Below are positions 1 to 54,464 of a DNA stretch of 64,000 bases, piece by piece. The DNA lies in assembly GCA_951406725.2 (NCBI GenBank), contig OX597814.1:102052001-102116000 (forward strand). The letters are read 5' to 3'. The notes beneath the pieces are model-generated. The model did not search any database. It saw only the letters and a program-made list of their open reading frames with translations, and had not been told where the DNA came from. The translations under genes were made by a program, and so were the position numbers. The first letter of the stretch is position 1, and each line of letters starts with the position of its first letter. This stretch comes from Octopus vulgaris. Its lineage: Eukaryota.

Positions 1-2240
1 ATATACATATTCATTATTATATTTGGTTATTTCTTGAAAATATTTACTTCAGTGACTGCAAATTGTCAGACAGATTGTCCAATTGTTTGCCACTGTACCG
101 AAGACAAATTAAAACACTGTACAGTAACATGTACTGACAAAATTCTAACTCAAATACCCAGTTATTTTCCAGAAAATACGACATCATTAGATCTAAGTCG
201 AAACCACATTAAAAGAATTCCTCCTGATATTATTAGACATTTAAACTTATTAGAGGTGCTAAAAGTTGACGATAATCTCCTTGAATATTTACTGCCAAAC
301 ACCTTTCAAGGTTTGTGGTCTTTGAGAGAACTGTCATTGGAATACAACAGACTAATTATTAATTATTCGTCATTTCCTATAAATCTTTTCCGAAATTTAA
401 CTAAAGTGAAAATTCTAAAATTACGAGGTAACACTGTGCACGAAGACATAAAACTTATTGATAGAACCATATCTCATCTAACTGCATTGGAAGATTTATA
501 CATGACAGGTGGTCAGTACTTTACCTTTGGAGCAGGATATAAGAATTTGACAAAATTAAAATATATTAATTTTGCCTCAAAAAGAAACAATTCAGTTATT
601 AGATATATTACAAAACATGCATTTAAAAATGTTCCCAGAATAACCCATTTGAATTTAGATTATTGTCAAATAAATGTTATTAACACCGATGCATTCTCAC
701 ATTTCGAAGATCTGCAAGTCCTACGCATTTCATTTAACAATCAACGTCTGCTGTATAATATTGCACTGTGTTTCCGGTACCTAAAAAACCCAAGTAAATT
801 CCAAACATTATATTTTAGTAATATAAAATTAAATGTAGGAACTGGCATTGTTATTACCGAGCATTTTACAAAACCTTTACATAAAACTGGATTGAAGAAA
901 ATTGTTTTAAATTCAGATCATATTGAAATAATTTCTTGGAATAGCATTCTCTCCTTGCCCAACACATTGGAATACGCTTATTTGAGAAACAACCAATTAA
1001 CATACGGAGAATATATCTTTCAAATTAAGGCTTTACCCAACATTAAATTAATCGACATTAGCATGACATTATCGTATAGAAAGCTACCATTTATTCGTAG
1101 TAAATTATTCAATAGCGATATTACATACAGTTATGCAATCCCTAAAACTCTTAAAACATTCTTGCTACAAGGTTGCCACTATCAATTTCCGATACCACCA
1201 TTCCATATAAAAGATGCAAATGCAATAAGATTAATTAATGCAACGAATAATTTATTTTGTCCATGGAGTGGCCCAGTCCGAGGCTTAGAGCAATTACAAA
1301 TTCTGGATTTAAGTCACAACCAATGCACTAATATCAGTAAAGAATTCTTCACATATTTCACTGGTCTGCGACTTTTGAATATCGAAAATAACGCAATAGG
1401 AATTTCAGGTCAAGTTGCCAAAGAAGGTTTCAGCAAAGCTTTTCTAAATTTAACCAGCCTCGAAGAATTACATCTTTCAAATAACCACATTCAATATTTA
1501 TCAAACAACAGTTTGTTACAGCTGAAAAATCTCAGAATCTTAAATTTACACAACAATTTATTGAAATCTTTTGATGTAAAGATTAGTCATATGTTAAATT
1601 TATCATATTTAGATTTATCTAAAAACGTTTTACAGGAACTGTCGGAAAACACTTTTAATGCTATTGAAAAGATATCTGAACACCATAAATTCACTGTCAA
1701 CATCCAAAGCAATAATTTGAAATGTGGTTGTGCACAAATAAGATTTCTCACTTGGCTGCACAAAGTACGAAATTCAGGTCGTTTGAAAATAATGTACTCG
1801 AAATGTACTCATCCTAACGGAACAGTATGGAAGTTGAAAGGAGATCGGCTTGTTAGGATCGTAAGCTTTCTGAATCACACTTGTTCAGCCTTGATAGGGA
1901 TAATAATTGCGATAAGTTTTGGTGTTGTAATACTGATTATATTTCTAGTTGCCTCACTCATTTACCATTTTAGATGGAAGCTACAATATTTATATTACAT
2001 GATCAGAGAAAAGTATTCCTACAAACGACTCACTCCCGATGAATATATTTATGATGCATTTGTGATTTATGCCGACGAGAATCGAGATTTTGCATTAAAT
2101 TATTTGATTCCAGAATTGGAAGAAAAAGAAAACTTACGTTTGAATATTCATCATCGGGACTTCCCTGTTGGAAAATTGATAACAGAAAATATATTATCAG
2201 CAATCCAATCTAGTCGAAAATGTATTATTTTATTAAGCAG
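1..2240 (+). CDS. Toll-like receptor copy 1, exon 1 (signal peptide, LRRNT, LRRs, LRRCT, TM, N-terminal part of TIR); ATG lies 3 nt before the window
   Basis: Frame is open from position 1 (IYIFIIIFGYFLK, same as copies 2/3 after Met). Cys-rich LRRNT CPIVCHC; many LxxLxLxxN repeats; LRRCT NNLKCGC..CTHP..C; hydrophobic TM ALIGIIIAISFGVVILIIFLVASLIY; TIR box1 YDAFVIY; donor AG|GTAAGT at 2240/2241. Confidence 0.96.
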
Positions 2241-12179: not shown

Positions 12180-14720
12180 CATCAATGCCAAGGTACAAGT
12201 GGCATTTTGTGGCAGACGAGATTGAGGATTTTTATACAACTCTTCGTTCAACCATTGAGCAAGTACCATACTTTTCTAGTTATAGCTGGTAATCTGAATG
12301 CTAAACTAGGACCCGATAAGACCAAGTTTACTCTCAACTCTAAAACTAATCGGAACGGGGAAATACTCAAAGACTTTTTAGAGGAATTTAATCTTTACAC
12401 CTCCAACAATTATTTTATGAAACCAAAAGGACAACTTTGGACATTCGAGTATCCATCTGGTGACAGGGCACAAATTGACTACCTCATTTTTCGAAAGAAG
12501 TGGCGAAATAGTGTCAAAGACTCGAGATCCTACTCTTCCTTTAGTTCTTTTGGTTCCGACCACAAAATTGTATCAGCTACCGTTAAGCTTATTCTTCGCT
12601 CATCCAAAAAAGCTAAGCCTCATCAGATAAAAACGATCGACTGGAAGGAAGTCTCGTCTAACCCCGATATGTCCAAGCAATTTACCATTGAGGTCTATAA
12701 CAAATTTCAATCTTTGTCTACTTCTGAAATAGATGGTGAGAACATTGAAGAAGTTTACAGTAGCCTCATCAAATCAACAGAGGAAGTTGCACTGGCTACT
12801 CTACCCAAAAAGTAGAGTAGGGACCAGAGCAAGCCTTCTAATTCCCTAAATGTCATCGAAGCCAGAAACCATCTAAAGTCTATATCACTAGCCTACCACC
12901 GTTCTCCATCCCAGTCACTGAAGATCCAACTCATAACTGCCAAGAAGAATCTTGATGATGTTTACTTGAACGCCGAGGTCGACTCTATTAACGGCAAAAT
13001 TAGCAAACTATCCAAAGAGCACATTAGTAAATAACACAGTCTTGCCTGGAAATCTATCAAAGACCTATCAGGCAAAAATTCTGGGTCATCAATTAGAATC
13101 AAAGCGGGATCAGCTAAGAAGCGTTTAGAAAATTGGTCAATTCATTTTTAAAACCTTCTTGGAAAGAATGCCACAATCCCCGATAACCCCACTCTTCCAA
13201 GTGTGCCTATATCAGATACGCTGGACATCAACACCTTCCCTTTTACCATATTTGAACTAACAGCAGCCACTAAACAACTGAAAGCCTCGAAAACTTTTGG
13301 TCCCGACAACATCCCAGCTATAATTTGGAAGGATGATAGATTTCACGTACTTTTGCTAAATCTTTGCAAACACACACTTTCCACTTTTATAGCTCCAAAG
13401 ATTTGGCACCAATCTCAAATCATCCTAATACCCAAAAAAGGCGATTTATCCCTCGTCACCAACTACAGGGGTTTATCTCTAATGTCAATTGATGCAAAAT
13501 TGTACAACAAACTGATTCTAAACCGTCTCGTCCCTTTTGTTGAACCTTTGCTCCGAAAGAATCAAAATAGATTCAGACATGGGCGCTCAACGTTGAGCCA
13601 AATACTATGCCTACGCAGACTCATTGAAGAATCAAAAGCATTTAATCGCGATCTTGCAATGGTGTTTGTAGACTTTTCTAAAGCGTTCGACTCTGTAGAT
13701 AGGTACAAGATGTTTGAAATCCTTAAGCTCTATGGGATTCCAGACAAAATCATTTCTGCCATCAAGGTCCTCTACACAGATACGTCTTCAACCATCTTAA
13801 CCCATGATGGGGAAACATCATCTTTCTCAATCTGCAAGGAGACACACTCGTCCCATTTCTCTTGTCGTTGACTATGTGCTACGTATGTCAGTTGATACCA
13901 TTTCTTGTAAGGGCTTTGAAATAAAACCTAGAAGAAGTTCCAGACACCCAGCTGAACACTGAACGGACACTGACTTTGCTGACGACATCGATCTTATCAG
14001 TGATTCTCTCTCCAATGCCCAGTCTCTTTTACAATATCTTAAATAAGCATCAAATTGTGTATGTCTTTACCTCAATGAGTCCAAGACTGAATATGTAAAC
14101 AAGTGCCTGTCCAACAGTGATTTCATCATCCATACTCTCAACAATACCCTCTTAAATATGGTTTCTGATTACAAATATCTTGGGTCATACATATCATCAT
14201 CTGAAAAAGATTTTCTAACTAGAAAGTGTATGGCCTGGTCAGCCTGTAATGATATGCATAAGATCTGATCATCAAATCTAAGTAGGGATTTCAAACTTAA
14301 AATCTTCAAAGCCACAGTCGAACCAATTCTACTATATGGCTCAGAAGCCTGGACGTAATCAAAGAAGCTTGAGAGGCGGTTGGATAGAACTTACACTCGC
14401 CTCCTTATGAGAGCTCAAAATCTCTCGTGGAAGTACAAATATATGAGAAATTACCACTTGTATCATCTCTTGTGAAAGGTAGAAGAGTTCAGTTTGCTGG
14501 ACATTGTTGTAGAGCTGAAAACGAGGTAATTTCTACTCTTCTCCTCTGGAAGCCATCTGCTTGCGATACCAGAGGGCGCACACTCTCATACTCTGATGTA
14601 ATCTCCAGGGATACAGGCATCCAGCACCGGGACCTCCGTAATGCTATGATTGACCGTGAAGTCAGGTGTACCATAGTAAATTCCATTGTCTCGACCACGG
14701 TCGAACAATGATGATGATGA
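12180..14720 (+). mobile_element. RTE-clade LINE pseudogene, APE + RT (also ~36349-38889)
   Basis: APE motifs GNLNAKLG, QIDYLI, SDH; RT motifs PKKGD..NYRGLSL, FVDFSKAFDSV, DFADDI; (TGA)n tail at 14709-14720; stops and frameshifts. Confidence 0.92.
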
Positions 14721-20969: not shown

Positions 20970-22335
20970 GTATGTATATTTATATTTATATATATATGTA
21001 TACGTATGTATAGTTATACTGCAAATTTTGATAACTATTTTAGAGTTTTGGTTATGATCACTAATCTTAGCTTATAATTATAAGAGAATGGGGAAAGACT
21101 TTATAGTACGATGAGTGGTTACTATAAAAAAAAATTTTATATATTTATTTATCATATAAGATTTTTAGAATATATTTAATAATTACTGGTTTTTAATCAA
21201 TTAAATTATTTAATTTATTTTGTGTTAAGTATTATTTATCATAGTTATTTTATTAATAAATCTTATAGTATAGAGTGATTTCATTCTTTATTTGTGACTT
21301 CATTCTATTTACACTGATAAACCATTAATGTTCCCATTCACAATCTTCATTGATAAAGCGTATTTGTTCCTCACGCTTAATGAATTCTTCAACAATTTAT
21401 TCTTTTTTTGCTAATAACGTAATTCCACGAGTATTCTTATAAACGCTGTAAAGATGTTTTCCGATTCAAAATTTTAGTTCATTACAAAACCTAGCTGAGG
21501 TAAGTATTTATTTATATTTAAGATCTTTCAATTGTAAATTTTTATATTATATAAGTCTTTGGTGTAATAATATTTTCCTTATGTAAATATCGTTGTTTAT
21601 GTAATGATCTAATTATCGTATATATGTGCATATATATTCATTTATGGAGGGTTTTTTTTAGATCTTAATTATAAAATACATTTATATATTTATGTAATTA
21701 GTTATAGACTATTACCGATATGAGATTATTGGTGGGTTTCATACCTTATAAATTAAAATTAATATTTAACATTATAATCGATTTTCATATAATAATAATT
21801 GTTAAGTTTTAAGTTTCTAGTTTGATAATAGAGTTTTTTATAAGTAAAGTTATTATATTATTTATATCTTTAAAAAATTGTTTAAATATTTCTGATTATT
21901 TTTAAAATATTTCAATTAACCTGAAGATTGACTGTAACCATAACACGAATTATTAATTGAATTTAAATTATTGTTATTCGAATTGGTACAGCCATGAAAC
22001 GATCGTAGTGTTTTACTCTTTATCTTTTATTAAACGTTTAATACTTTTGATATATAAATATAAAATATACATACATATATATATATATATTTGTATATAT
22101 ATATAAAATTTATAAGTTTAAATTATTTAAATAATTTTTAATTTTTAACTTTTATATTTTTAAGTTAATTTTATGTATTGGCTTATGTTTTTCACTGTTT
22201 GATTTGCCTAATAGTGGTTTTATCTCTAATTTAATATAATATAATATAATATAATATATTTATATTATAAAATTGGATTTGATCCTAAATCTAATTTTCC
22301 CCGTAAGTTTGGATTTATTCCCTAATATTATTAAT
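18244..22335 (+). mobile_element. 5'-truncated Penelope-like element, RT + GIY-YIG, probably Nematis-type (also ~44425-49340)
   Basis: IIVQSDKTRNLY; PMGAPDSAQATDLVGIYLL; GGLYRDDLL; SNHPPSI; Asn-rich linker; CTCRDKTKC..VVYKC..YIGYT..RIAQH..STGLSKYIWGLK; both ends lie in (TA)n; several stops. Confidence 0.9.
21918..22010 (+). ncRNA. Minimal type I hammerhead ribozyme-like motif in the Penelope 3' region
   Basis: CTGAAGA (21921) - long stem II (TGACTGTA.CCA/TGGTACAGCCA, CGAAT/ATTCG) - GAAA (21996) - C-GATC-G palindromic stem III - TA; stem I only 2 clear bp. Confidence 0.7.
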
Positions 22336-23868: not shown

Positions 23869-24172
23869 CATTCAGATAGAAAACTTGTCTTTCCTTATTA
23901 CGAAAATATACTAAATGTATATACGTAATATTATCTCAAATGAACTTCGATTGAATGCTTTATCCACACTTATAGCAATCAGTTACGTAAGTAGCTTTAA
24001 CTTATAGCAAAAGTTTTAGTCTTTCACATATTAACACAACCAATCAGGTCGAGATTTCATTATTTTGGATCTTTCTTTTGACGTTTAACCTAGTTTTCCA
24101 TAGCAATCTATTAAAAAATTAGCATTAAATTACTTGCGTTTCTTCATTTCTGGCTGTAATGCTTATCTAAAG

Positions 24173-26415
24173 ATGATATACATATTCATTATTATATTTG
24201 GTTATTTCTTGAAAATATTTACTTCAGTGACTGTAAATTGTCAGACAGATTGTCCAATTGTTTGCCACTGTACCGAAGACAAATTAAAACACTGTACAGT
24301 AACATGTACTGACAAAAATCTAACTCAAATATCCAGTTATTTTCCAGAAAATACGACATCATTAGATCTAAGTCGAAACCACATTAAAAGAATTCCTCCT
24401 GGTATTATTAGACATTTAAACTTATTAGAGGTGCTAAAAGTTGATGATAATCTTCTTGAATATTTACTGCCAAACACCTTTCAAGGTTTGTGGACCTTGA
24501 GAGAACTGTCATTGGAATACAACAAACTAACTATTAATTATTCGTCATTTCCTATAAATCTTTTCCGAAATTTAACTAAAGTGAAAATTCTAAAATTACG
24601 AGGTAACACTGTGCACAAAAACACAAAATTTATTGATAGAACTATATCTCATCTAACTGCACTGGAAGATTTATACATGTCAGGTGGTCAGTACTTTATC
24701 TTTGGAGCAGGATATAAGAATTTGACAAAATTAAAATATATTAATTTTGCCTCAAAAAGGAACAATTCAGTTATCAGATATATTACAAAATATGCATTTA
24801 AAAATGTTCCCAAAATAACCCATTTGAATTTAGATTATTGCCATATAGATGTTATTAACACCGATGCATTCTCACATTTTGAACATTTGCAAGTCCTACG
24901 CATTTCATTTAACCATCAAATTCTGCTGTATAGGATTGCACTGAGTTTCCGGTATCTAAAAAACCCAAGTAAATTCCAAACATTATATTTTAGTAATATA
25001 AAATTAAATGTAGGAACTGGCATTATTATTGACGAGCATTTTACAAAGCCTTTACATAAATCTGGATTGAAGAAGATTGTTTTAAATTCAGATCATATTG
25101 AAATAATTTCTTGGAATAGCATTCTCTCCTTGCCCAACACTTTGGAATACGCTTATTTGAGAAACAACCAATTAACATACGGAGAATATATCTTTCAAAT
25201 TAAGGCTTTACCCAACATTAAATTAATCGACATTAGCATGACATTATCATATAGAAAGCTACCATTTATTCGAAGTGAATTATTCAATAGCGATATTATA
25301 TACAGTTATGCAATCCCTAAATCTCTTAAAACATTCTTACTACAAGGTTGCCACTATCAATTTCCGATACCACCATTCCATATAAAAGATGCAAATGCAA
25401 TAAGATTAATTAATGCAACGAATAATTTATTTTGTCCATGGAGTGGCCCAGTCCGAGGCTTAGAGCAATTACAAATTCTGGATTTAAGTCACAACCAATG
25501 CAATAATATCAGCAACGAATTCTTCACATATTTCACTGGTCTGCGACTTTTGAATATCGAAAATAACGCAATAGGAATTTCAGGTCAAGTTGCCGAAGAA
25601 GGTTTCAGCAAAGTTTTTCTAAATTTAACCAGCCTCGAAGAATTACATCTTTCAAATAACCACATTCAATATTTATCAAACAACAGTTTGTTACAGCTGA
25701 AAAATCTCAGAATCTTAAATTTACGCAACAATTTATTGGAATCTTTTGATGTAAAGATTAGTCATATGTTAAATTTATCATATTTAGATTTATCTAAAAA
25801 CATTTTACAGGAACTGTCGGAAAACACTTTTAATGCTATTGAAAAGATATCTGAACACCATAAATTCACTGTTAACATCCAAAGCAATAATTTGAAATGT
25901 GGTTGTGCACAAATAAGATTTCTCACTTGGCTGCACAAAGTACGGAATTCAGGTCGTTTGAAAATAATGTACTCGAAATGTACTCATCCTAACGGAACAG
26001 TATGGAAGTTGGAAGGAGATCGGCTTGTTAGGATCGTAAGCTTTCTGAATCACACTTGTTCAGCCTTGATAGGGATAATAATTGCGATAAGTTTTGGTGT
26101 TGTAATACTGATTATATTTCTAGTTGCCTCACTCATTTACCATTTTAGATGGAAGCTACAATATTTATATTACATGATCAGAGAAAAGTATTCCTACAAA
26201 CGACTCACTCCCGATGAATATATTTACGATGCATTTGTGATTTATGCCGACGAAAATCGAGATTTTGCATTAAATTATTTGATTCCAGAATTGGAAGAAA
26301 AAGAAAACTTACGTTTGAATATTCATCATCGGGACTTCCCTGTTGGAAAATTGATATCAGAAAATATATTATCAGCAATCCAATCTAGTCGAAAATGTAT
26401 TATTTTATTAAGCAG
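24173..26415 (+). CDS. Toll-like receptor copy 2, exon 1
   Basis: ATG 24173 (MIYIFIIIFGY); same domain order and length (2243 nt) as the other copies; donor AG|GTAAGA at 26415/26416. Confidence 0.96.
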
Positions 26416-26444
26416 GTAAGAAACCCCCATTAAAATTATAGCAT

Positions 26445-34913: not shown

Positions 34914-37900
34914 ATCTTTCTTTTCTGACAGTCTGTCCGTATGTATGTATGTATGTATGTATGTATGTATGTATGTATGTATGTATGTATGTATGTATGT
35001 ATGTATGTATGTATGTATGTATGAATGTAGGCTTGTGTGTATGTAAGACTCTTCCGTACTTAATTATTTAGATTCTTCCTCTGAAAAATGTTGATAACGA
35101 AAACAATGTCACATATTAAACCTGAGAAATGTCTTAGTGTTCCGCTTATAGACTGCATTTGCAATGTGGAAATACGTTGGTTGATTGCGTTTTCTAAAAC
35201 ACCAAGCTTATCCAGACTTACAGTTAGTTATTGGTATAAATATAAATTTGCATTCCGGATATAGAAGCTGGAAGTTTCGAAGCAGTTTTCCGTAGTTAGC
35301 TTCTTTGTCTTTCATTTTCAAAGAGATATTCACATCAGCAGGACAGCTAGTCTCTATGACGGAACATACTTTTTCTTGTCTGTTCCAAACAACAATATCC
35401 GGCATGTTATGCTTGCAATTGACAGATGTTTTGACGGGTATGTTCCGCCAGTATTCCTTATGTTGATATTTGTGTACGTATTCAATAACAGAGGGATTCT
35501 CTACATTTGTTCCAGGACAATCTTGTTTTTCAAATGGCATTTTTAGCAACATTCTTATGTTTCATAGAGAGGCTGTGCCTTGGTGATATTTTTTGGACAG
35601 CCGCTAATCACATGTGTGGTGTCTTGCACAAAAATATAACATTATTTACATTTAAGCTGATTCTTGGAACTCCAAAGGCCTCACTGTCTCTTTTGTTGAT
35701 GAAGTATTTAGTAGTGATCTCCTGTTCTTGGATTGTAAATGAAGAGCCTTTGAAGTGGGATGTGATGTAGCAGTCACTAGTTCAAGAGAGATTTCGCTTC
35801 ATGTCAATGTTCCTATCTTCTTCAAGTAAACGAGAAACATACCCATACATAGTCGTTTTTCTTGGTATGCTGAGCATTTCACCTCCAGGGTTTCTTTGAG
35901 CTATGTTAGTCCAGCTGATTTGGGGTTGCATGGGAGGTCATTAGGACTAGGAACTCACTTCCAACACGTAGGATATTGTTTTCTTCACTTTTCAGCATTT
36001 AGTTAATGTATATATTTTTGTTGCAGTTGTTGTTTAACAAGTGCTGTCTGAGACATTTAAAGGCTCTCTACACTGAGCTAAAGCCTCTACTTCCTTTGTC
36101 TCTTCTTATGTAGAACTTGTCGATATCACTATTTTTGTTTTGTTAAGATTTCCAAATGAGGTTAGATTCTTGAGGGTTAAAATGTCTATGGAGTGGATTT
36201 CTACTTCAGACCAGTCGATTATCTCGAATGTTGGAAACAGTACAGGTACTGCTAATGCGCTGTGAGATATTGTCTTGTTCTAAAAGGAGAATTCAGACTA
36301 CCATATTTGTTTTAATCTGGTTTAATATTCTTGGATAACGCACATTTTCATCAATGCCAAGGTACAAGTGGCATTTTGTGGCAGACGAGATTGAGGATTT
36401 TTATACAACTCTTCGTTCAACCATTGAGCAAGTACCATACTTTTCTAGTTATTGCTGGTTATCTGAATGCTAAACTAGGACCCGATAAGACCAAGTTTAC
36501 TCTCAACTCTAAAACTAATCGGAACGGGGAAATGCTCAAAGACTTTTTAGAGGAATTTAATCTTTACGCCTCCAACAATTATTTTATGAAACCAAAAGGA
36601 CAACTTTGGACATTCGAGTATCCATCTGGTGACAGGGCACAAATTGACTACCTCATTTTTCGAAAGAAGTGGCGAAATAGTGTCAAAGACTCGAGATCCT
36701 ACTCTTCCTTTAGTTCTTTTGGTTCCGACCACAAAATTGTATCAGCTACCGTTAAGCTTATTCTTCGCTCATCCAAAAAAGCTAAGCCTCATCATATAAA
36801 AACGATCGACTGGAAGGAAGTCTCGTCTAACCCCGATATGTCCAAGCAATTTACTATTGAGGTCTATAACAAATTTCAATCTTTGTCTACTTCTGAAATA
36901 GATGGTGAGAACATTGAAGAAGTTTACAGTAGCCTCATCAAATCAACAGAGGAAGTTGCACTGGCTACTCTACCCAAAAAGTAGAGAAGAGACCAGAGCA
37001 GGCCTTCAAATTCTCCAAATGTCATCGAAGCCAGAAACCATCTAAAGTCTATATCACTAGCTTACCACCGTTCTCCATCCCAGTCACTGAAGATCCAACT
37101 CATAACTGCCAAGAAGAATCTTGATGATGTTTACTTGAACGCCGAAGTCGACTCTATTAACGGCAAAATTAGCAAACTATCCAAAGAGCACATTAGTAAA
37201 AAACACAGTCTTGCCTGGAAATCTATCAAAGACCTATCAGGCAAAAATTCTGGGTCATCAATTAGAATCAAAGCGGGATCAGCTAAGAAGCGTTTAGAAA
37301 ATTGGTCAATTCATTTTTAAAACCTTCTTGGAAAGAATGCCACAATCCCCGATAACCCCACTCTTCCAAGTGTGCCTATATCAGATACGCTGGACATCAA
37401 CACCTTCCCTTTTACCATATTTGAACTAACAGCAGCCACTAAACAACTGAAAGCCTCGAAAACTTTTGGTCCCGACAACATCCCAGCTATAATTTGGAAG
37501 GATGATAGATTTCACGTACTTTTGCTAAATCTTTGCAAACACACACTTTCCACTTTTATAGCTCCAAAGATTTGGCACCAATCTCAAATCATCCTAATAC
37601 CCAAAAAAGGCGATTTATCCCTCGTCACCAACTACAGGGGTTTATCTCTAATGTCAATTGATGCAAAATTGTACAACAAACTGATTCTAAACCGTCTCGT
37701 CCCTTTTGTTGAACCTTTGCTCCGAAAGAATCAAAATAGATTCAGACATGGGCGCTCAACGTTGAGCCAAATACTATGCCTACGCAGACTCATTGAAGAA
37801 TCAAAAGCATTTAATCGCGATCTTGCAATGGTGTTTGTAGACTTTTCTAAAGCGTTCGACTCTGTAGATAGGTACAAGATGTTTGAAATCCTTAAGCTCT

Positions 37901-39269
37901 ATGGGATTCCAGACAAAATCATTTCTGCCATCAAGGTCCTCTACACAGATACGTCTTCAACCATCTTAACCCATGATGGGGAAACATCATCTTTCTCAAT
38001 CTGCAAGGAGACACACTCGTCCCATTTCTCTTGTCGTTGACTATGTGCTACGTATGTCAGTTGATACCATTTCTTGTAAGGGCTTTGAAATAAAACCTAG
38101 AAGAAGTTCCAGACACCCAGCTGAACACTGAACGGACACTGACTTTGCTGACGACATCGATCTTATCAGTGATTCTCTCTCCAATGCCCAGTCTCTTTTA
38201 CAATCTCTTAAATAAGCATCAAATTGTGTATGTCTTTACCTCAATGAGTCCAAGACTGAATATGTAAACAAGTGCCTGTCCAACAGTGATTTCATCATCC
38301 ATACTCTCAACAATACCCTCTTAAATATGGTTTCTGATTACAAATATCTTGGGTCATACATATCATCATCTGAAAAAGATTTTCTAACTAGAAAGTGTAT
38401 GGCCTGGTCAGCCTGTAATGATATGCATAAGATCTGATCATCAAATCTAAGTAGGGATTTCAAACTTAAAATCTTCAAAGCCACAGTCGAACCAATTCTA
38501 CTATATGGCTCAGAAGCCTGGGCGTAATCAAAGAAGCTTGAGAGGCGGTTGGATAGAACTTACACTCGCCTCCTTATGAGAGCTCAAAATCTCTCGTGGA
38601 AGTACAAATATATGAGAAATTACCACTTGTATCATCTCTTGTGAAAGGTAGAAGAGTTCAGTTTGCTGGACATTGTTGTAGAGCTGAAAACGAGGTAATT
38701 TCTACTCTTCTCCTCTGGAAGCCATCTGCTTGCGATACCAGAGGGCGCACACTCTCATACCCTGATGTAATCTCCAGGGATACAGGCATCCAGCACCGGG
38801 ACCTCCGTAATGCTATGATTGACCGTGAAGTCAGGTGTACCATAGTAAATTCCATTGTCTCGACCACGGTCGAACAATGATGATGATGAAAACAACTATT
38901 TTGGCATTCGTTCATCCGCCATTTGAACAATATGCCCACATCATCTTATTTGGTTCCTCAAAATCATAGCTTTAATTGGGGTGGTGCCTGCATATGCAAG
39001 GACATCTGTGTTTGGAGTAAAAGAAATCTATTTAATGTTTAAAATGCGATGAAGGCATTTTAGTTACAATTATTCTAACAATTTAAAATGTCTTTCATAA
39101 CAAGACCATATTCCACAAGGATACAGCAGGGATGGTAAGACAAATGATTTGTAAAGAGCCAGCTTTTTATTCTTATTAATATGTCGCAGGCACCAAACGC
39201 GTGACTCCAAGCCACGAAATGCTCTTGCTGCCCTTTGAATTCGTTTTGAATTTCAGTCTAGTTAGATTT

Positions 39270-40408
39270 TTAAAATTCACTGTTGTTCGATATTTTATGT
39301 AAATACCCTCCTCAGAGTTTTGAAAAGCATGTGACAACACAACGGCAAATGATATTGCAAAGAGAGTGGGTGGATCAAGGTCTCCTTGCTTTACTCCATT
39401 TTCCACGGCAAAAGGTCCAGAGAGCCTACCACCAAAGTTAATTCTAGCTTTCATATCTTGATGCAAGGCCCTGATCATGTTTACAAATTTGTCTGGACAA
39501 CCTAATTTCCTTAGAATTAGCTACAGAGCATTTCAATTAACAGTATCGAATGCTTAAAATTCACTGTTGTTCGATATTTTATGTAAATACCCTCCTCAGA
39601 GTTTTGAATAGCATGTGACAACACAACGGCAAATGATATTGCAAAGAGAGTGGGTGGATCAAGGTCTCCTTGCTTTACTCCATTTCCCACGGCAAAAGGT
39701 CCAGAGAGCCTACCACCAAAGTTAATTCTAGCTTTCATATCTTGATGCAAGGCCCTGATCATGTTTACAAATTTGTCTGGACAACCTAATTTCCTTAGAA
39801 TTAGCTACAGAGCATTTCAATTAACAGTATCGAATGCTTAAAATTCACTGTTGTTCGATATTTTATGTAAATACCCTCCTCAGAGTTTTGAATAGCATGT
39901 GACAACACAACGGCAAATGATATTGCAAAGAGAGTGGGTGGATCAAGGTCTCCTTGCTTTACTCCATTTTCCACGGCAAAAGGTCCAGAGAGCCTAACCA
40001 CCAAAGTTAATTCTAGCTTTCATATCTTGATGCAAGGCCCTGATCATGTTTACAAATTTGTCTGGACAACCTAATTTCCTTAGAATTAGCTACAGAGCAT
40101 TTCAATTAACAGTATCGAATGCTTAAAATTCACTGTTGTTCGATATTTTATGTAAATACCCTCCTCAGAGTTTTGAATAGCATGTGACAACACAACGGCA
40201 AATGATATTGCAAAGAGAGTGGGTGGATCAAGGTCTCCTTGCTTTACTCCATTTTCCACGACAAAAGGTCCAGAGAGCCTACCACCAAAGTTAATTCTAG
40301 CTTTCATATCTTGATGCAAGGCCCTGATCATGTTTACAAATTTGTCTGGACAACCTAATTTCCTTAGAATTAGCTACAGAGCATTTCAATTAACAGTATC
40401 GAATGCTT
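39270..40408. repeat. 4x tandem repeat of a 284-bp RTE RT fragment
   Basis: TAAAATTCACTG starts at 39271, 39555, 39839 and 40124; single copy at ~15100-15385 in the other unit. Confidence 0.95.
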
Positions 40409-42841: not shown

Positions 42842-43144
42842 ATACATAAACACGCACACACGAGTCTAGCCTGAATACGTGTGCACTAAAGAATAATGAA
42901 TTATTTTCATATATACGTTTCATATATACATACATACTCTTTACTCTTTTACTTGTTTCAATCATTTGATTGTGGCCATGCTGGAGCAGCGCATTTAGTC
43001 GATCAAATCGTCCCCAGGAATTATTCTTTGTAAGCCTAGTACTTATTCTATCGGACCCTTATGCCGAACCGCTAAGCTACAGCGACGTAAACACACAAGC
43101 ATCGGTTGTCAAGCGATGTTGGGGGGACAAACACAGACACACAA

Positions 43145-43228
<84 letters not shown>

Positions 43229-43229
<1 letters not shown>

Positions 43230-44352
43230 AAGACCCTTGTCCTACGTCCTGGTTTTGTTTTGTTTTTTATCTTTACCGTTATTGTTTTTACGTTTTTGTA
43301 TTCTTATTGGTGTCATGTATTCTGTATTTTTGTTCGTGTACTTCGTTCGTTTTCCGTCCTCGTGTTGTATACATTCGAAGCTTTCTTCCAGGGGATCTAA
43401 TGCGCTTGGCTTAGATTTCCCTTGGCGGGCTGCCCAGATCGGAGCAATCTCAAGATTAATCAGCCGAAATTGCGAAGATGATCTGGTTCTTGACTGATGA
43501 CTGAGGGCTTCGAATGTCCCGTCCTGTGGTTCTTGTGTCGTCTCTTTGGTGTTTCATGTTCTTGTCCATGTCTGTATTTATTTTTTACTGTTTACATATA
43601 TAATCGGCGGCTACGTATCCACAATTGTCCTTATACGATAAGTATATTTTTTCTCTAGCATTGATACGACTCTTGATCTGTCTCTTTCTCTCTCTCTCTC
43701 TCCTCCCTTATTCCCCTTCCTTTCTTTCCCTCTCCATCCGTCCCCCCTTCTATGTTTCTCTATCTCTCTCACCTCCAGTCCCCTCGATCTGTCTCTTTCT
43801 TCTCCTCCCTCGTCCACCTTCTCTCTCTTTTCATCTGTCCCTTTCTCCTGTCTTTTGTTCTCACGTGACCGCTAGCCACTGCTGAGCGCCCTTTTCGTTC
43901 CAGCAGTCGTCGAAGCAACACGTATTTGTTCGTCTCCCTGCGGCCATTAGGCACAACTTCATAAGCCAGCCCCAAACTCAACTCGTCCTGTCGAAAGACC
44001 CTTGTCCTACGTTCTGGTTTTGTTTTGTTTTTTATCTTTACCGTTATTGTTTTTACGTTTTTGTATTCTTATTGGTGTCACGTATTCTGTATTTTTGTTC
44101 GTGTACTTCGTTCGTTTTCCGTCCTCGTGTTGTATACATTCGAAGCTTTCTTCCAGGGGATCTAATGCGCTTGGCTTAGATTTTGGCGGGCTGCCCAGAT
44201 CGGATCAATCTCAAGATTAATCAGCCGAAATTGCGAAGATGATCTGGTTCTTGACTGATGACTGAGGGCTTCGAATGTCCCGTCCTGTGGTTCTTGTGTC
44301 GTCTCTTTGGTGTTTCATGTTCTTGTCCATGTCTGTATTTATTTTTTACTTT

Positions 44353-44355
<3 letters not shown>
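43229..44355. mobile_element. Non-coding element in (TA)n with ~365-bp direct repeats (A 43229-43595, B 43603-43993, A 43994-44355)
   Basis: Near-identical direct repeats start AAAGACCCTTGTCCTACG; absent from the orthologous TA tract at 18190-18240. Confidence 0.8.
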
Positions 44356-44429
<74 letters not shown>

Positions 44430-45715
44430 ATTATTATTATTATTATTGTTCAATCAGATAAAACTAGGAATCTCTATAAATTGGATGTTAAATTATATGA
44501 TAACCTTTTAGAGAAAGAAATATTTAAAAAACATAAATTGTTCCAGATAGTATACTTTATTATATTAATAAAGCCTCTAAATTAGTAATGATAATCTATG
44601 AATTGGATAATAAAACTGAACCTTATATACCTATGCACCCTAGAATTACTCTGAAAGAGCATAAAGATAATTTTTATTCAGACCCTAAGCTATATTTATT
44701 TGTCCATGTAAATCTGACCTTGGTAAATTGAGTAAACTTATTTTAGATAAATATATTAATAAATTAAATAAACTTAATTACTTAAAATTATGGTTTAGTA
44801 ATAATCATACTTCAAATTGGTTTAATAATATTAAAGATTAAAATCGATATAAATTTATTCAAATAGATATAGATAATTACTATTCTTCTATTAATGAAAT
44901 TGTGTTTAATAAGGCCCTTATTTTTGCAATGAATAAAGTGGGAATGACTTTTGAAGAGGTTAACGTAATTAAAATGGCTAGGAAATCGTTTATAAAATAT
45001 AAAAATAAATAATGGGCTAGGAAAGATACAAGGGACTTTTTTTGATATACCTATGGGAGCACCTGATTCTGCACAAGCTACGGATTTAGTAGGTATTTAT
45101 CTTTTATCTGAACTCCAATTAGAAAATTTAAAAATAGAGGGTGGTTTATATAGGGATGACCTTCTACTAATTACTAAAGAATTGCACCAATAGGAACCTA
45201 GAAGTATTTAAGAAAAAACTTTATAGTTTCTTTAAAAGATATTGTTTAGGTATTACTATATATAATGAGAATTTTAATGTTAATTATTTAGATGCTAATT
45301 TTAATCTAATTAGGGGTAAAATACAACCATATCATAAACTTAATGAGAACCTTAGATATATAAATGTTAATAGTAATCACCCACCATCAATTAGAAAATC
45401 GTTGATTAATAATATAAGTAAACGTATATCATTACTTTCTTATGATTTAGAGATTTTTAATAAACATGCTCCTTAATACAATGAGGCCCTTAGAGAGGCA
45501 GGTTATAATAGTAATATTAAATTTTTTATTAAAAATAAAGATAAAACTATTAATAATAGAGATTAAAATATTAATAATAATTATAATAATTTTGTTAGTA
45601 ATATTTGTAATAATCTTAGACCTTATAAAAATAAAAATAATATAAATAAAAATAAGAATAAAAATAAAAATAATGTCTTTAATAATTCTTTAAATGTCAA
45701 TTATAAATTTAAATC

Positions 45716-45753
<38 letters not shown>

Positions 45754-47331
45754 TGATAAAGAAATATAATAATAATAATGGTAACAATAATAATGACAGT
45801 TTTAATATTAATAATAAGAAAAATAAGAATAAAATTTGGTTAATAGTTCCTTATGGTGCTCAAGTTGATAAGAACATGGTTAAAGAGATTTTAGATATTA
45901 TTAAACTATTTATTTGAGATAATCGTAAATATAAAAACATATTCTCTAGTAATAATTTTGGAGAAGGTTATTCTACCACTAATAGTGTAAGTAACATTAT
46001 TTCTTCTTTTAACAAATTTGAACTGAATAATTTTTATAAAAATAAATTATATAATAATACCAATAATAAAAAAAGATAATACACTAATTAACTGTACATG
46101 TAGAGATAAAACTAAATGCAACGTAAATAATAAATGTGATATTAACGATGTAGTGTATAAATGTATAGTTACATTACATGATGAGAATAATAAGAATAAT
46201 AATAACTCAAACGCGATATATATAGGGTCTACTTCCTCTAAAATAAAATTAAGAATCGCACAGCATATGCATTCACTTAAAAATGAAAACTTAATTAACT
46301 CCACTGGACTTAGCAAGTACATTTGGGGACTGAAATCCCAAAATATTAATTATGATTTATCTTGGGAAATAATTAGTGAGGGTAAATCATATAATGTAGG
46401 AGGGAACTTTTGTTATTTATGTTCAAATGAGTTTAAGGAAATTTTATTTTATAAGCATGATAAATTAGAAAATATCTGGGATGAGCGCAAAATAAAAGGC
46501 AGACACAAGTTACTTTACTTATATAATAAATTTCTTGATAAATCACGAATATTTCTTAGCCTTAATTAGCTCCGTATTTGTTGATTTATGTAATAGTATT
46601 CTAAATATAGCAGGTGATTTGTAGTACTTATTATATTCGTTTATTTTAGTTATTTAGGTTCTGTTTATAATTATAATTAGATTATATATAGTTGTTTATT
46701 TTATTACAAAATATTTTATTACTAAATATATTTTTTAATAAATATTTAATGGTTTATTGAATATAGAGCTTGGTAAGTTACAATTTTATTTATCTTATAA
46801 TAAAGTTAAGTTTATATATTCTGTTATATTTCTGTTATAATTTTGTTAAATTATAATTTTGTTATATTAATCTATTTGTATGTAATCTCTTTATATTTGA
46901 AATAGATTTATTTAGTTGTTTATTTAATCTATTTTATTTAATATAGAAGTATAGATTAGTAAGATTGAATATTTAGATTAAACTTAAAGTTTACCTCTAT
47001 TTTTGTATTATAGTATGAATATAAACATTTATATACGTATTTATTATATGATATATGTGTTTGTGTGTGTATGTATATATGTGTATATGTTTATGTGCGT
47101 GTATATATATGTATATGTATATACATTTATTTATGTGTGTGGGGGGGTGTATATAGGTGTATGTGTATATATTGAGTATTGTATGTATGTACATGTATGT
47201 AAGTGTGTGCATATGTGTATGTGTGTATGTGTGTGTATATATGTGTGTACATATGTATATGTATGTATGTTTGTATGTATGTGTATACATATATGTATAT
47301 ATATATATATATGTATATATATAGGTATATA

Positions 47332-47392
<61 letters not shown>

Positions 47393-47830
47393 ATTTATAT
47401 TTATATATATATATGTATACGTATGTATAGTTATACTGCAAATTTTGATAAGTATTTTAGAGTTTTGGTTATGATCACTAATCTTAGCTTATAATTATAA
47501 GAGAATGGCGAAAGACTTTATAGTACGATGAGGGGTTAGTATAAACAATTTTTTAATATTTTATTAATCATATAAGATTTTTAGAATATATTTAATAATT
47601 AGTGGTTTTTAATCATTTAAATTATTTAATTTATTTTGTATTAAGTATTATTTATCATAGTTATTTTATTAATAAATATTATATTATAGAGTGATTTTAT
47701 TCTTTATTTGTGACTTCATTCTATTTACACTGATAAACCATTAATGTTCCCATTCACAATCTTCATTGACAAAGCGTATTTGTTCCTCACGATTAATGAA
47801 TTCTTCAACAATTTATTCTTTTTTTGCTAA

Positions 47831-48014
47831 ATATCTTGCAAACAACTTGCACATGCAAGTGCTACCAGTTAAAAGCTCCGTATATCGGAAGCTAGCAAGT
47901 GTATGGGGTCATCAGGAGAGAATGCGCGCCGTTTCGGGGCCTACCTCTCGACGGCATCAATGCGCACCGGCCCCCCTCACTGATATGAGGCCCCGCTTGC
48001 TAGATCAGCTGGTA
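47831..48014. other. GC-rich, highly self-complementary island in the Penelope 3' region, containing hammerhead core motifs
   Basis: Stems TACCAGTT/AGCTGGTA, CTAGCAAGTG/CGCTTGCTAG, GAGAG/CTCTC, GCCGT/ACGGC, GGGGCC/GGCCCC, CCTCA/TGAGG; function unknown. Confidence 0.6.
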
Positions 48015-49818
48015 ATTCCACGAGTATTCTTATAAACGCTGTAAAGACGTTTTCCGATTCAAAATTTTAGTTCATTACAAAACCTCGCTGAGGTATGTAT
48101 TTATTTATATTTAAGTTCTTTAAATTGTAAATTTTAATATTTTATAAGTCTTTGGTGTAATAATATTTTCCTTATGTAAATATCGTTGTTTATGTAATGA
48201 TCTAATTATCGTAATTTTCTATATTATTAGATATTAAACTTAAGTTTATTCGTAAGATACTACTTAGCGATAGATTTGTTGTTTGATAGCAAGTATACGA
48301 GGTGTCGAAAGTTATGCTTTTGTATATACATTTATTAATAGTATCAATTGTAGTTTTAAATTTCTCATAATTAAAATTAGATAAACTTTGATAAACTTAG
48401 AAAAGTCTCGACTAAAGATTGGTCCAAGCCATGTCTAACTTAATAGCATAACTTAGTTATTGTCTTTTTAAATTGATATTCGCTAGTTATTTCCATTGTT
48501 AATTATATTTATAGTATTTATATTATTTATTCGATACTATATAACTACGAATTGATTATTTCTATAAGTATTTTACATTAGATTTCCGAAAGTTCGTTTA
48601 ATTTTGTTTGTTTGTATTTTTGAAATTAGCTATTTCATCTTTAAATATGAAAAATTAATTTATTAGGTTTTTATATATGTGCATATATATTTATTTATAG
48701 AGGGTTTTTTAGATCTTAATTATAAAATACATTTATATATTTTCATTGATAATTTATATATAATGGTCATTTTTTTTATATTTATGTCATTAGATATAGA
48801 CTATTACCGATATTAGATTATTGGTGGGTTTCCTACCTTATAAATTAAAATTAATATTTAACATTATAATCAATTTTGATATAATCATAATTGTTAAGTT
48901 TTAAGTTTCTAGTTTGATAATAGAGTTTATTATAAGTAAAATTATTATATTATTTATATCTTTAAAATATTGTTTATATATTTCTGATTATTTTTAAAAT
49001 ATTTCAATGAACCTGAAGATTGACTGTAACCATAACACGAATTATTAATTGAATTTAAATATAAAATATACATACATACATATATATATATATATTTGTA
49101 TATATATATAAAATTTATAAGTTTAAATTATTTAAATAATTTTTAATTTTTAACTTTTATATTTTTAAATTAATTTTATGTATTGGCTTATGTTTTTCAC
49201 TGTTTGATTTGCCTAATAGTGGTTTTATCTCTAATTTAATATAATATAATATAATATATTTATACTATAAAATTGGATTTGATCCTAAATCTAATTTTTC
49301 CCTGTAAGTTTGGATTTATTCCCTAATATTATTATTATTAATATATATATATATATATATACATATCTACGACGGGCTTCTTTCAGTTTCCGTCTACCCA
49401 ATCCACTCACAAGGCTTTGGTCGACCCGAGGCTATAGTAGAAAAACTTGCCCAAGGTGCCACGCAGTGGAACAGAACCCGGAACCTTGTGGTTGGTAAAC
49501 AAGCAACTTACCACACAGCCACTCTTACGCCTATATTTCTTTCATACATATATTGTCTATTTTAATGTTATTTATAGCAATGATGGTGAAACATGATATT
49601 TTTAATATAAAGTTAAATACACTTAAATACAGTCAAGTGTCCACTTCGACGAATATTTTAGCTATTAAGGAAAAGTATTAACAGAAACAACACATAACAA
49701 AACAACAAATATGATAAACAAACGACGATGACATGGTTTATTGTTATTTAAAACCATATTTAAGGAAGAGTCCTTCAATAACAGGAATTATAACACAAGA
49801 GTGGGCAATCCTATTTCC

Positions 49819-50384: not shown

Positions 50385-51308
50385 ATGTGTGTGTGTGCGC
50401 GCGTGCGTGTTTATGAATTTTTTTTAAAAATCCACTCTTGCCCCATTATCTTCATTCGTCGAATATGTCTGCCAACAACAAAAGCTTAAATTCCTATTAC
50501 ATCTTACAGCGAATCACTGCAAAATTTACAACTCCATTCATGGGAGAACGGAAGCCTCGCTGATTATTCTGTCAGGATGCAATTGAAATTTTACTTTACG
50601 ACGTACAGAAATGGTTTACTCAGATTTAACAAATTACATTTAAGTTAGATCGAAAACTTGCAACATATCTTATATTTGTACCAGATTAAAGGAAAACGGC
50701 CGTTAATCATACATAAATGATTCACATACACTGAAGACAAAGATATAATTTATTATTATTACTTCGCACAGCCAGTAGAGTAATAATAACCCTCTATCTT
50801 TAATTATATTATCACTTGATCGGGAAGCTTGTTTTCATTTATATCGCTAAATACCGGAATATAAAATGAAGAAAACGAGCAGATTATGAAATCGCACAAG
50901 AATTCCACCTGAAAGTATTCCAATATTTAAAATCATTAGACCCACTAAATTTGGATAATCCATTGGAACATTTACTGCCAAGCACTTTCCGCGATTTTTG
51001 GTCTCATTCAGATAGAAAACTTGCCTTTCCTTAATACGAAAATATACTAAATATATATACGTAATATTATGTGAAATGAACTTCGATTGAATGCTTTACC
51101 CACACTTATAGCAATCAGATACGTAAGTAGCTTTAACTTATAGCAAAATTTTTAGTCTTTCACATATTATCACTACCAATCAGGTCGAGATTTCATTATT
51201 TTTGATCTTTCTTTTGACGTTTAACCTAGTATTCCATAGCAATCTATTAAAAAATTAGCATTAAATTACTTGCGTTTCTTCATTTCTGGCTGAAATGCTT
51301 ATCTAAAG

Positions 51309-53551
51309 ATGATATACATATTCATTATTATATTTGGTTATTTCTTGAAAATATTTACTTCAGTGACTGCAAATTGTCAGACAGATTGTCCAATTGTTTG
51401 CCACTGTACCGAAGACAAATTAAAACACTGTACAGTAACATGTACTGACAAAATTCTAACTCAAATACCCAGTTATTTTCCAGAAAATACGACATCATTA
51501 GATCTAAGTCGAAACCACATTAAAAGAATTCCTCCTGATATTATTAGACATTTAAACTTATTAGAGGTGCTAAAAGTTGACGATAATCTTCTTGAATATT
51601 TACTGCCAAACACCTTTCAAGGTTTGTGGTCTTTGAGAGAACTGTCATTGGAATACAACAAACTAACTATTAATTATTCGTCATTTCCTATAAATCTTTT
51701 CCGAAATTTAACTAAAGTGAAAATTCTAAAATTACGAGGTAACATTGTGCACAAAAACACAAAACTTATTGATAGAACTATATCTCATCTAACTGCACTG
51801 GAAGATTTATACATGACAGGTGGTCAGTACTTTATCTTTGGAGCAGGATATAAGAATTTGACAAAATTAAAATATATTAATTTTGCCTCAAAAAGAAACA
51901 GTTCAGTTATGATATATATTGTAAAATATGCATTTAGAACTGTTCCCAGAATAACCCATTTGAATTTAGATTACTGCCACTTACACAGATTAAACGGCTA
52001 CACATTAGCATTTTTCGAAAATCTGCACCTCCTACGCATTTCATTTAACAATCAAAAGCTGCTGGAGGAAATTCCACGGACCTTGGAACGTCTGAAATTC
52101 CCAAGCCAATTGCAAATATTATATTTTAGTAATATGAAATTAAATGTAGGAACTGGCAATGTTATTACCGAACGTTTTACAAAATCTTTACATAAATCTG
52201 GATTGAAGAAGATTGTTTTAAATTCAGATCATATTGAATCAATTTCTTGGAATAGCATTCCCTCCTTGCCCAACACATTGGAATACGCTTATTTGAGAAA
52301 CAACCAATTAACATACGGAGAATATATCTTTCAAATTAAGGCTTTACCCAACATTAAATTAATCGACATTAGCATGACATTATCATGTAGAAAGCTACCA
52401 TTTATTCGTAGTAAATTATTCAATAGCGATATTACATACAGTTATGCAATCCCTAAATCTCTTAAAACATTCTTACTACAAGGTTGCCACTATCAATTTC
52501 CGATACCACCATTCCATATAAAAGATGCAAATGCAATACGATTAATTAATGCAACGAATAATTTATTTTGTCCATGGAGTGGCACAGTCCGAGGCTTAGA
52601 ACAATTACAAATTCTGGATTTAAGTCACAACCAATGCAATAATATCAGTAACGAATTCTTCACATATTTCACTGGTCTGCGACTTTTGAATATCGAAAAT
52701 AACGCAATAGGAATTTCAGGTCAAGTTGCCAAAGAAGGTTTCAGCAAAGCTTTTCTAAATTTAACCAGCCTCGAAGAATTACATCTTTCAAATAACCACA
52801 TTCAATATTTATCAAACAACAGTTTGTTACAGCTGAAAAATCTCAGAATCTTAAATTTACACAACAATTTATTGAAATCCTTTGATGTAAAGATTAGTCA
52901 TATGTTAAATTTATCATATTTAGATTTATCTAAAAACGTTTTACAGGAACTGTCGGAAAACACTTTTAATGCTATTGAAAAGATATCTGAACACCATAAA
53001 TTCACTGTTAACATACAAAGCAATAATTTGAAATGTGGTTGTGCACAAATAAGATTTCTCACTTGGCTGCACAAAGTACGGAATTCAGGTCGTTTGAAAA
53101 TAATGTACTCGAAATGTACTCATCCTAACGGAACAGTATGGAAGTTGAAAGGAGATCGGCTTGTTAGGATCGTAAGCTTTCTGAATCACACTTGTTCAGC
53201 CTTGATAGGGATAATAATTGCGATAAGTTTTGGTGTTGTAATACTGATTATATTTCTAGTTGCCTCACTCATTTACCATTTTAGATGGAAGCTACGATAT
53301 TTATATTACATGATCCGAGAAAATTATTCCTACAAACGACTCACTCCCGATGAATATATTTACGATGCATTTGTGATTTATGCCGACGAAAATCGAGATT
53401 TTGCATTAAATTATTTGATTCCAGAATTGGAAGAAAAAGAAAACTTACGTTTGAATATTCATCATCGGGACTTCCCTGTTGGAAAATTGATATCAGAAAA
53501 TATATTATCAGCAATCCAATCTAGTCGAAAATGTATTATTTTATTAAGCAG
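51309..53551 (+). CDS. Toll-like receptor copy 3, exon 1 (divergent central LRRs)
   Basis: ATG 51309; intact LRR-TM-TIR; donor AG|GTAAGT at 53551/53552. Confidence 0.96.
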
Positions 53552-54464
53552 GTAAGTAACCCCCATTAAAATTATAGCATCCACACGAACACACACACAC
53601 ACACACACACACACATATCTTCCTAATTTTCAAAGTACGATGGGTTGCTGAAAAATTCCTGGTTTTAAGGGTACCACGAAAGGCTTGGTTGGAGGCCTAA
53701 TCTTCCGAGTTCTTTTACAGAGCTTAGAAAAACTGAAGGATCGCAGCAATAAGTGTGTGAATCTGAGGGGAGAATATGTTGAATAAAATGATGCTTAACT
53801 CATCCACTTGTATTTTCTTTTAACCACAGCCAGGAACTTTTCAGCAGCCCCTCGTTCAAAGCAATTATTAGCATTATTTGTATTATTAACACATATCACA
53901 TTCAACACATGTTTTGAGTACTAACTATAATATATATTCCTTTCTTTAGCATAATTAATTTGACATAAAACAAAAGAATTTAATGCATGGTTTAACTAAC
54001 TCGGTAATAATTAGAAACATTAACATCACTTAACATTTCCGTGGGTCCGTGTTTAAAAAAAGTTTTGGATCAAGAAGGATATGTAGAGGGATTAAAAGTG
54101 TAAAAGAGTAGCAGTTGTGTAAGGGTGAGTGTGAGTTACGAAAATGTCTGCTACGTCAAACTGTACTATCTACCTCATGTTCAATATACTCCATAATATT
54201 AAAAAGTATATATTATATATATACGTAGATGTGCGTACATGTATGTATGCATGTATGTATGTCATTATTCAGCGTATTTCAAGATTTCTTGCCTATAGAG
54301 AAAGAACCGGCTTCTAACCTAGATGCTTCATTGGAATTTCAAAGTCGACAACAAGGTATTTTTGATTGTATGTATGTATGCATGTATATATGAATGTATG
54401 TATGTATGTATGTATGTATGTATGTATGTATGTATGTATGTATGTATGTATGCATGTATGTATG

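Follow-up and report, generated by a model that had tools for sequence, protein, structure and literature searches.

In a 64,000-nucleotide stretch of the Octopus vulgaris genome (contig OX597814.1 of assembly GCA_951406725.2; hereafter the window), the minus strand of a short GC-rich island carries a full hammerhead core in an arrangement that splits the CUGAUGA block from its stem II strand (Table 1). The island is probably the 5'-truncated tail of a LINE, and its core would form a triple pseudoknot that cleaves the element's RNA 3' of C47950, acting as a slow or protein-assisted processing ribozyme.

Read on the minus strand, the core runs from a GUC site (block S) through GAAA (block G) to CUGAUGA (block C), each in register with stems III and I, as a first-pass annotation of this DNA had described. 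That annotation had also held that the order fits none of the circular types, and the S-G-C order indeed differs from types I, II and III (CGS, GSC and SCG). It had left room for Rfam naming a known, unrelated RNA; scans of the window and of 47700-48150 returned no ribozyme match at E≤10, hammerheads included, and gave only microsatellite and miRNA noise and two chance matches. Chance does not account for the S-G-C core of the island: among 100,000 dinucleotide shuffles of the sequence, a core with stems of at least 4+4 bp turned up once, and one with at least 5+5 bp never did in 100,000. The bases after A9 contribute 0 bp to a stem II in the island. Circular permutation through tandem read-through was rejected for the island because A9 is not followed by a stem II strand.

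Table 1. Coordinates of the island, its predicted parts and neighbouring elements in the window.
Feature	Position	Strand	Remarks
Inserted element (island)	47832..48012	-	3' terminus near 47832, truncation near 48012
Outer helix, 5' strand	47996..48003	-	Pairs with 47899-47892, 8 bp; from sequence
Helix X, 5' strand	47991..47994	-	Pairs with 47908-47905, the bases immediately 3' of A9
Hairpin Y	47975..47990	-	Between helix X and stem II
Stem II, 5' strand	47969..47974	-	Begins with G10.1; pairs with 47941-47936, 6 bp
Interaction helix, 5' strand	47962..47966	-	Pairs with 47927-47923; counterpart of the stem I-II interaction helix of types SGC and CSG
Block S	47945..47955	-	Stem III strand 47955-47951, predicted cleavage site C47950 (by analogy), stem I strand 47949-47945
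Link and block G	47928..47944	-	3-nt link 47944-47942, stem II 3' strand 47941-47936, GAA 47935-47933, stem III strand 47932-47928
Interaction, stem I and CUGAUGA stretch	47905..47927	-	Interaction 3' strand (47927-47923), then stem I (47920-47916), CUGAUGA (47915-47909) and the 3' strand of helix X (47908-47905)
Outer helix 3' strand and hairpin-rich 3'-terminal segment	47832..47899	-	From sequence; terminus from contig depth
Second split-form family, first copy	43410..43510 (approximate)	+	Predicted site C43449; unrelated in sequence to the island; descriptor and pairing
Second split-form family, second copy	44170..44270 (approximate)	+	Predicted site C44210, 761 nt downstream
Decayed host Penelope-like element	44450..49060	+	RT motifs in translation; island inserted antisense in its 3' region

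Homologues were collected along two routes. Scanning metagenomes with stems I and II preset in the pattern yielded three loci, of which L121 and L122 overlap and represent one element; L123 is the other. A pick by protein alone gave nine loci of LINEs with a restriction-like endonuclease (REL), five of them extending 3' of the ORF. A sense-strand S-G-C core lay 3' of the ORF in three of these five (L129, L132 and L133), in the split form in two (L132 and L133); L131 and L134 lacked the motif there, and the core of L129 was not split. The L133 motif stands about 270 nt behind what is left of an ORF and is preceded by a short (TA)n; its carrier may be another, neighbouring element. In L129, at 1180-1260 (+), the S-G-C core has stems III and I that are long, stem II after A9 measures 2 bp, and an interaction helix is possible 3' of it. 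This core resembles a type-SGC ribozyme, unsplit and in DNA, and lies some 290 nt past a REL ORF. Loci L126-L134 are animal-type LINE sequences inside nine bacterial assemblies, which are likely to be contaminated with host DNA.

These sequences locate the missing strand of stem II. The first-pass annotation had reasoned that stem II needs an upstream GGGGCC strand and that extra helices stand between A9 and position 10.1, and the homologues bear out both points: the partner is the copy at 47974-47969, which covaries, and helix X, often with hairpin Y, fills the gap. The first of the two upstream GGGGCC copies was rejected as a partner because it is absent from L121. A fourth helix, between 47966-47962 and 47927-47923, had been overlooked. 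On the minus strand the stem II 5' strand is followed by the interaction strand, the site block, the GAAA block and CUGAUGA, an order in which stem I, stem II, and stem III together with the interaction helix are mutually crossing groups. Helix X has a pair probability of 0.88 in the nested ensemble, and its sequence differs yet still pairs in L121 (13 bp) and L123 (6 bp). Hairpin Y is optional, being missing in L133 and in the family at 43449. In the island, L121 and L123, helix X and hairpin Y adjoin stem II without unpaired bases and would there form a gap-free four-way junction at A9/G10.1. Hairpin Y, its loop included, is nearly invariant in these three close homologues, among which it shows no covariation, and lies outside the search pattern. 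The hairpin-rich 3'-terminal segment likely serves as the priming end for the element's reverse transcriptase.

The same split layout, with fully changed stems, recurs in four sequence-independent families: the island with L121 and L123, the pair at 43449 and 44210, L132, and L133. The core letters C3-A9 (CUGAnGA), G12-A14, A15.1-U16.1 and an NUH site are present in 7/7 split-form sequences, a presence preset by the descriptor. Beyond those letters, seven of the eight cores examined have an upstream stem II partner strand that starts with G10.1-C11.1 and then a second upstream strand that pairs with the linker before stem I. Against shuffles of the adjacent 30 nt, which precede stem III, this upstream stem II plus interaction helix was matched in 0, 0, 3, 5, 8, 17 and 21 of 2000. 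A canonical stem II after A9 amounts to 0-1 bp in 7/7 split-form sequences, and each has a helix X after A9, of 3-13 bp.

The covariation check that the annotation had proposed was carried out as pair counting over the homologues. In a table of five pairs per helix, with registers that we set, 137 of 140 helix cells pair across stems I, II and III plus the interaction helix over seven sequences, which amount to four independent families. Two or more pair types occur at 18 of 20 pair positions, only G10.1-C11.1 and A15.1-U16.1 being invariant. The interaction helix is paired in 33 of 35 cells, with up to four pair types per position. G10.1-C11.1 closes stem II in 7/7, with G10.1 on the upstream strand, which the pairing script did not demand. 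Positions 7 (U/G) and 17 (C/A) vary only inside the range that hammerheads permit. The search that brought up L121 and L123 had stems I and II preset, and for the three close homologues alone the pair counts are weak (three double changes, 18 of 500 shuffles, two of the changes possibly CpG decay).

A strict descriptor of the split form matched three times in the window and never in 300 locally shuffled windows. It had no match in 120 viral control loci with the core letters in order; these were 120 of about 870 loci from a general core-order pattern, none of them with 4-bp stems I and III. Neither the exact motif of the island nor that of the 43449 family occurred in the viral contigs scanned for them. 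Protein-led scans gave two weak viral loci that lack the motif, none in further scans and none in plasmids.

The second family in the window has two motifs, of which the one at 44210 is a copy of that at 43449 and not independent of it; it is part of an incomplete tandem repeat that sits within (TA)n as an insertion. The repeat itself (43229-44362, +) is non-coding, consists of a 374-nt piece and a unit of about 760 nt, and is absent from the sister unit. Two split-form hammerheads 761 nt apart predict a retrozyme-like circle.

The strand and fold of the island had prompted two caveats in the first-pass annotation. One was that CTGATGA may be sequestered; in the island, an upstream complement is not above chance (807 of 2000 shuffles). 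An 'off' helix hiding CUGAUGA was rejected as a common feature, being significant in one of seven sequences. That one is L132 (about 930-1035, +), where eight upstream bases perfectly complement the CUGAUGA region (0 of 2000 shuffles), a possible off-switch in the L132 lineage only. The other caveat, that pairing favours the plus strand, is taken up below. When the island is folded as a nested structure, stems I and II come out with probabilities near zero and a rival helix takes their place. Because nested folding programs cannot depict three crossing helices, showing one of the three groups and filling the rest with rival helices, we regard this as weak counter-evidence.

The island is an insertion of its own. 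In the sister unit (~21415) four other bases replace it, without target duplication, in agreement with the annotation, which had noted its absence there. Its further suggestion of a structured Penelope-like element (PLE) RNA gives way to a separate antisense insertion with its own termini and a depth far above that of the Penelope flanks; the island is not an integral sense-strand part of the host Penelope 3' end. A second island copy was not found in the 64-kb window. Runs of four organisms, spread over ten studies, contain the stretch. Depth was taken from contigs, in which RNA ends are not visible, of one run from each organism (four of the 24 runs listed). In run X1 the summed contig depth over the island was 0.5-1.3 million, compared with 44-80 for single listed contigs and 3,000-53,000 for the Penelope flanks, and a depth step over the island likewise appeared in the other three runs. 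We put the island family at about 10^4 copies, a rough order, since summed depth is no copy number. The flanks to the left of 47834-47836 are mixed across contigs (agreement 0.44-0.46), and one common continuation follows 48013 (agreement about 0.7, four runs). Because of this asymmetry, the minus-strand 3' end is the true terminus and the island copy is 5'-truncated. A true 3' terminus with 5' truncation is the pattern of target-primed retrotransposition.

The host Penelope is decayed, and its GIY-YIG match is weak (E 5e-4, below the curated cut-off). In the sister unit, from 21921 to about 22005 (+), it contains a type I minimal-hammerhead core in which stem II is long; in the island-bearing unit the second half of the type I core at 49013 is deleted. 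The window at large is a series of tandemly duplicated segments that contain Toll-like receptor genes as well as retroelements in decay. Long LRR and TIR frames of Toll-like receptor genes stand at 24104-26419 and 51294-53555 (+), in tandem segmental duplications that share about 94-97% identity. No S-G-C core lies near the fragments of a further REL-type endonuclease (11279-10941 and 35447-35280, -) or of an RVT_1 frame (13152-13871 and 37321-38040, +). A tandem repeat of about 285 nt, 99% alike, is present in several copies at 39270-40408 and in a single copy in the sister unit. Short repeats at 43000-43120 and 49365-49530 presumably represent octopus-type SINE sequence.

The carrier is likely a REL-endonuclease (HERO-like) LINE, of which the island would be the 5'-truncated 3' UTR; the island's own tie to a LINE ORF consists of six loose-end-consensus codons plus the homologue L123. 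They stand in the continuation after 48013; read by eye from that consensus, the minus strand there has six codons that include a W-x-E motif, plus a stop. Among 157 homologue proteins of REL-LINE type, 39 end in W.E plus 0-4 residues, and the fit of the six-codon end to these protein ends is at most suggestive. In L123 the site (N17) lies 57 nt 3' of the ORF stop. The 63 longer homologues of its ORF are single-ORF proteins with a zinc knuckle and a restriction-like endonuclease, many with RVT_1, and relatives occur in fish, lancelets, bivalves and a hydrozoan. In L132 the motif is likewise 3' of a REL-LINE ORF. We take these proteins to be HERO-like from their motifs; no named HERO reference was among the matches. 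Among molluscs, R2-Hero is mainly cephalopod, according to the accessible part of PMC10294476. In L123 (1-1175), the REL-element tail is again located within the 3' region of a GIY-YIG Penelope-like element, in the same orientation.

The closest known ribozymes are those of type SGC, HRIMA-1 and its variants, which follow the order site, GAAA, CUGAnGA and cleave at 0.007-0.19 per minute (Eckert et al. 2023, PMC10085705; here and below, statements on this paper refer to the portions available to us). The island shares with them the block order, a link of about 3 nt between stems I and II (3 nt in the island), 5-bp stems, an interaction helix joined to stem III by 0 to few nt, all core bases and G10.1-C11.1. 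In type SGC, however, the stem II and interaction strands come directly after CUGAnGA, with 0-1 extra base, whereas the island has both of them 5' of the site block, and its A9 runs on into helix X. Type SGC has an uninterrupted block C, and the island does not; we have not filed the island there because its CUGAUGA block is split and the published descriptors need CUGAUGA(U)G. On its predicted structure, the island works like type SGC but is no member of it. Types CSG and GCS resemble the island in their reversed strand cycle, and CSG also has a link from the stem II/interaction strand to the site block; they differ in being opened between blocks, with CUGAnGA and stem II contiguous. By its predicted strand order, the island is a further, fourth permutation of the reversed SGC/CSG/GCS cycle, opened between A9 and G10.1. 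Each of its three inter-block links occurs in some permutation that cleaves in vitro (PMC10085705). The annotation's claim of a new topology therefore stands in part: ribozymes with the S-G-C order and the 3-nt link were described in 2023, with cleavage demonstrated, and what is new is the split of the CUGAUGA block and the setting in an animal retroelement.

In the available portions of that work, SGC ribozymes are reported only from metatranscriptomes, CSG is known from two metagenome sequences and GCS from one bacterium, and, apart from that one GCS candidate, none of these types is recorded in genomes of known organisms. Extra bases at the opening point do have precedents, in HRIMA-1, which has one at A9/10.1 (PMC10085705), and in minimal Penelope hammerheads, which carry a conserved base between 9 and 10.1 (PMC4209133, in part). 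Like the island, type I and minimal Penelope pseudo-LTR hammerheads and non-LTR retrozymes sit on the sense strand near the element's 3' end (PMC4209133; PMC11167929; bioRxiv 10.64898/2026.07.22.740005; accessible text); unlike it, they have the canonical circular order and a three-way junction and are often dimeric, and the island's carrier is likely a REL LINE. The accessible text of that preprint and of PMC13725137 treats only canonical hammerhead types. R2 elements have HDV-like ribozymes at their 5' end (PMC7650587, in part). These are, as predicted for the island, self-cleaving RNAs in a REL-endonuclease non-LTR element, but they belong to another class, lie at the other end and set the RNA 5' end, which the island's site apparently does not. 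In the literature searched, with few subscription journals covered, we found no published split-block hammerhead and no hammerhead in HERO elements.

The split form also appears in Naiads, Penelope-like elements that Craig et al. (2021, PMC8557442) describe, in the parts accessible to us, as lacking canonical hammerheads. Their 'HHR_core' and 'HHR_half_core' notes record core letters that fit no descriptor, without a proposed structure. Reading their consensus file by eye, which misses motifs broken across line ends, we found the complete split form in the 3' region at seven of the 19 CTGATGA places; two further places are type CSG, one is ambiguous, and the other nine show nothing of the kind. 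The split form was seen in Naiad_Obim, Naiad_Ovul, Naiad_EuTe and four other records, and Naiad_EuTe has the same link and X helix as the island. At least four more type-CSG places, also by eye, were among the matches listed for other position-7 letters. Together these type-CSG places, at least six, read as complete and stand around the nematode records of File S5.

Three other accounts of the island were weighed. It is very improbable, and largely refuted, that the plus strand is functional or that the island is a domain of the surrounding Penelope, its core order being incidental. The plus strand of the island copy does fold better (nested z -2.89 vs -0.76 for the minus strand), which upholds that part of the annotation's caveat, and L123 is also nested in a Penelope 3' region. 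However, in L123, L132 and L133 the motif has the same sense as the ORF, and in L121 and L133 it is the ribozyme strand that carries G-U pairs. The mixed left flanks and depth set the island apart from the Penelope, the Penelope has a type I core of its own at 21921, and the shuffles exclude chance. We also think it unlikely that the fold is real but non-cutting, a hammerhead-derived docking structure for the element's reverse transcriptase before priming. As far as the accessible Naiad consensi go, the core is kept while all stems turn over in REL LINEs and in GIY-YIG Naiads, unrelated groups with reverse transcriptases that do not have to bind the same ligand; and with the upstream strand as stem II partner no base is used twice. 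The position of the motif 60-120 nt from the element 3' end, the genomic copies that read through the predicted site and the disfavouring of stems I and II in nested folds speak for docking; docking and cutting are compatible with each other.

Quite improbable, too, is a catalytic core formed between two RNA copies, as a strand-swapped dimer rather than one triple pseudoknot. Threading three crossing helix groups through links of 0-6 nt is difficult, the authors who described type SGC doubted the fit of the link between stem III and the interaction helix to the crystal structure (PMC10085705), the 43449/44210 family is tandem, and minimal PLE hammerheads function as dimers (PMC4209133; both sources in part). 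Yet SGC and CSG monomer constructs cleaved during transcription, according to the accessible part of PMC10085705, and the island family consists of dispersed single copies with mixed flanks. We hold with good confidence that the single RNA would fold as a triple pseudoknot and be cleaved 3' of C47950.

In the processing ribozyme that we favour, the strand cycle would be opened between A9 and G10.1 and closed by helix X, often stacked on hairpin Y. The 3' product would be 118 nt in the island copy, with the whole of stem I inside it, and a total of 28 bp (in stems II and III, the interaction helix, X and the outer helix) would link both products. Because these pairs join the products, the cut RNA would stay clamped, with slow release and re-ligation favoured. 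Such a slow, conditional or protein-assisted ribozyme could trim read-through or tandem precursor RNA to unit length, as has been proposed for Penelope hammerheads (PMC4209133, in part), and the trimmed RNA could also be circularised. There is no depth step at 47950, and no loose end there among those listed; the ends at which genomic copies stop are thus not visibly determined by cleavage, and we infer that the insertions came from uncut or re-joined RNA, which would be the template for reverse transcription. For the anole Penelope hammerhead, the accessible text of PMC11167929 reports that protein is needed for cleavage, that the hammerhead is dispensable for insertion and that the main template is unprocessed RNA. 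The biological role as a processing ribozyme is the least secure step, and we consider it evenly balanced.

Collectively, these data indicate that the split form of the island is real and conserved, a predicted variant of a known ribozyme class. Its layout contradicts the rule, assumed by Eckert et al. in the portions available (PMC10085705), that the three blocks are uninterruptible and only six permutations exist. Non-circularly permuted hammerheads thereby move from rare metatranscriptome contigs to high-copy animal retroelements, and a predicted hammerhead is placed at the 3' end of a REL LINE, a placement not found in the literature searched. A junction placed inside the catalytic strand also gives the engineering of ribozyme switches a new site of attachment. 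The split form is also a candidate answer to the apparent lack of hammerheads in Naiads (PMC8557442, in part). We lean slightly towards a broader proposal, in which the island represents a seventh natural arrangement that is active and serves REL LINEs and Naiads across animals as a swappable 3'-end module; together with type CSG it would be the missing ribozyme of Naiads, and it would act as a nick-and-hold switch that re-ligates or circularises the element's RNA.
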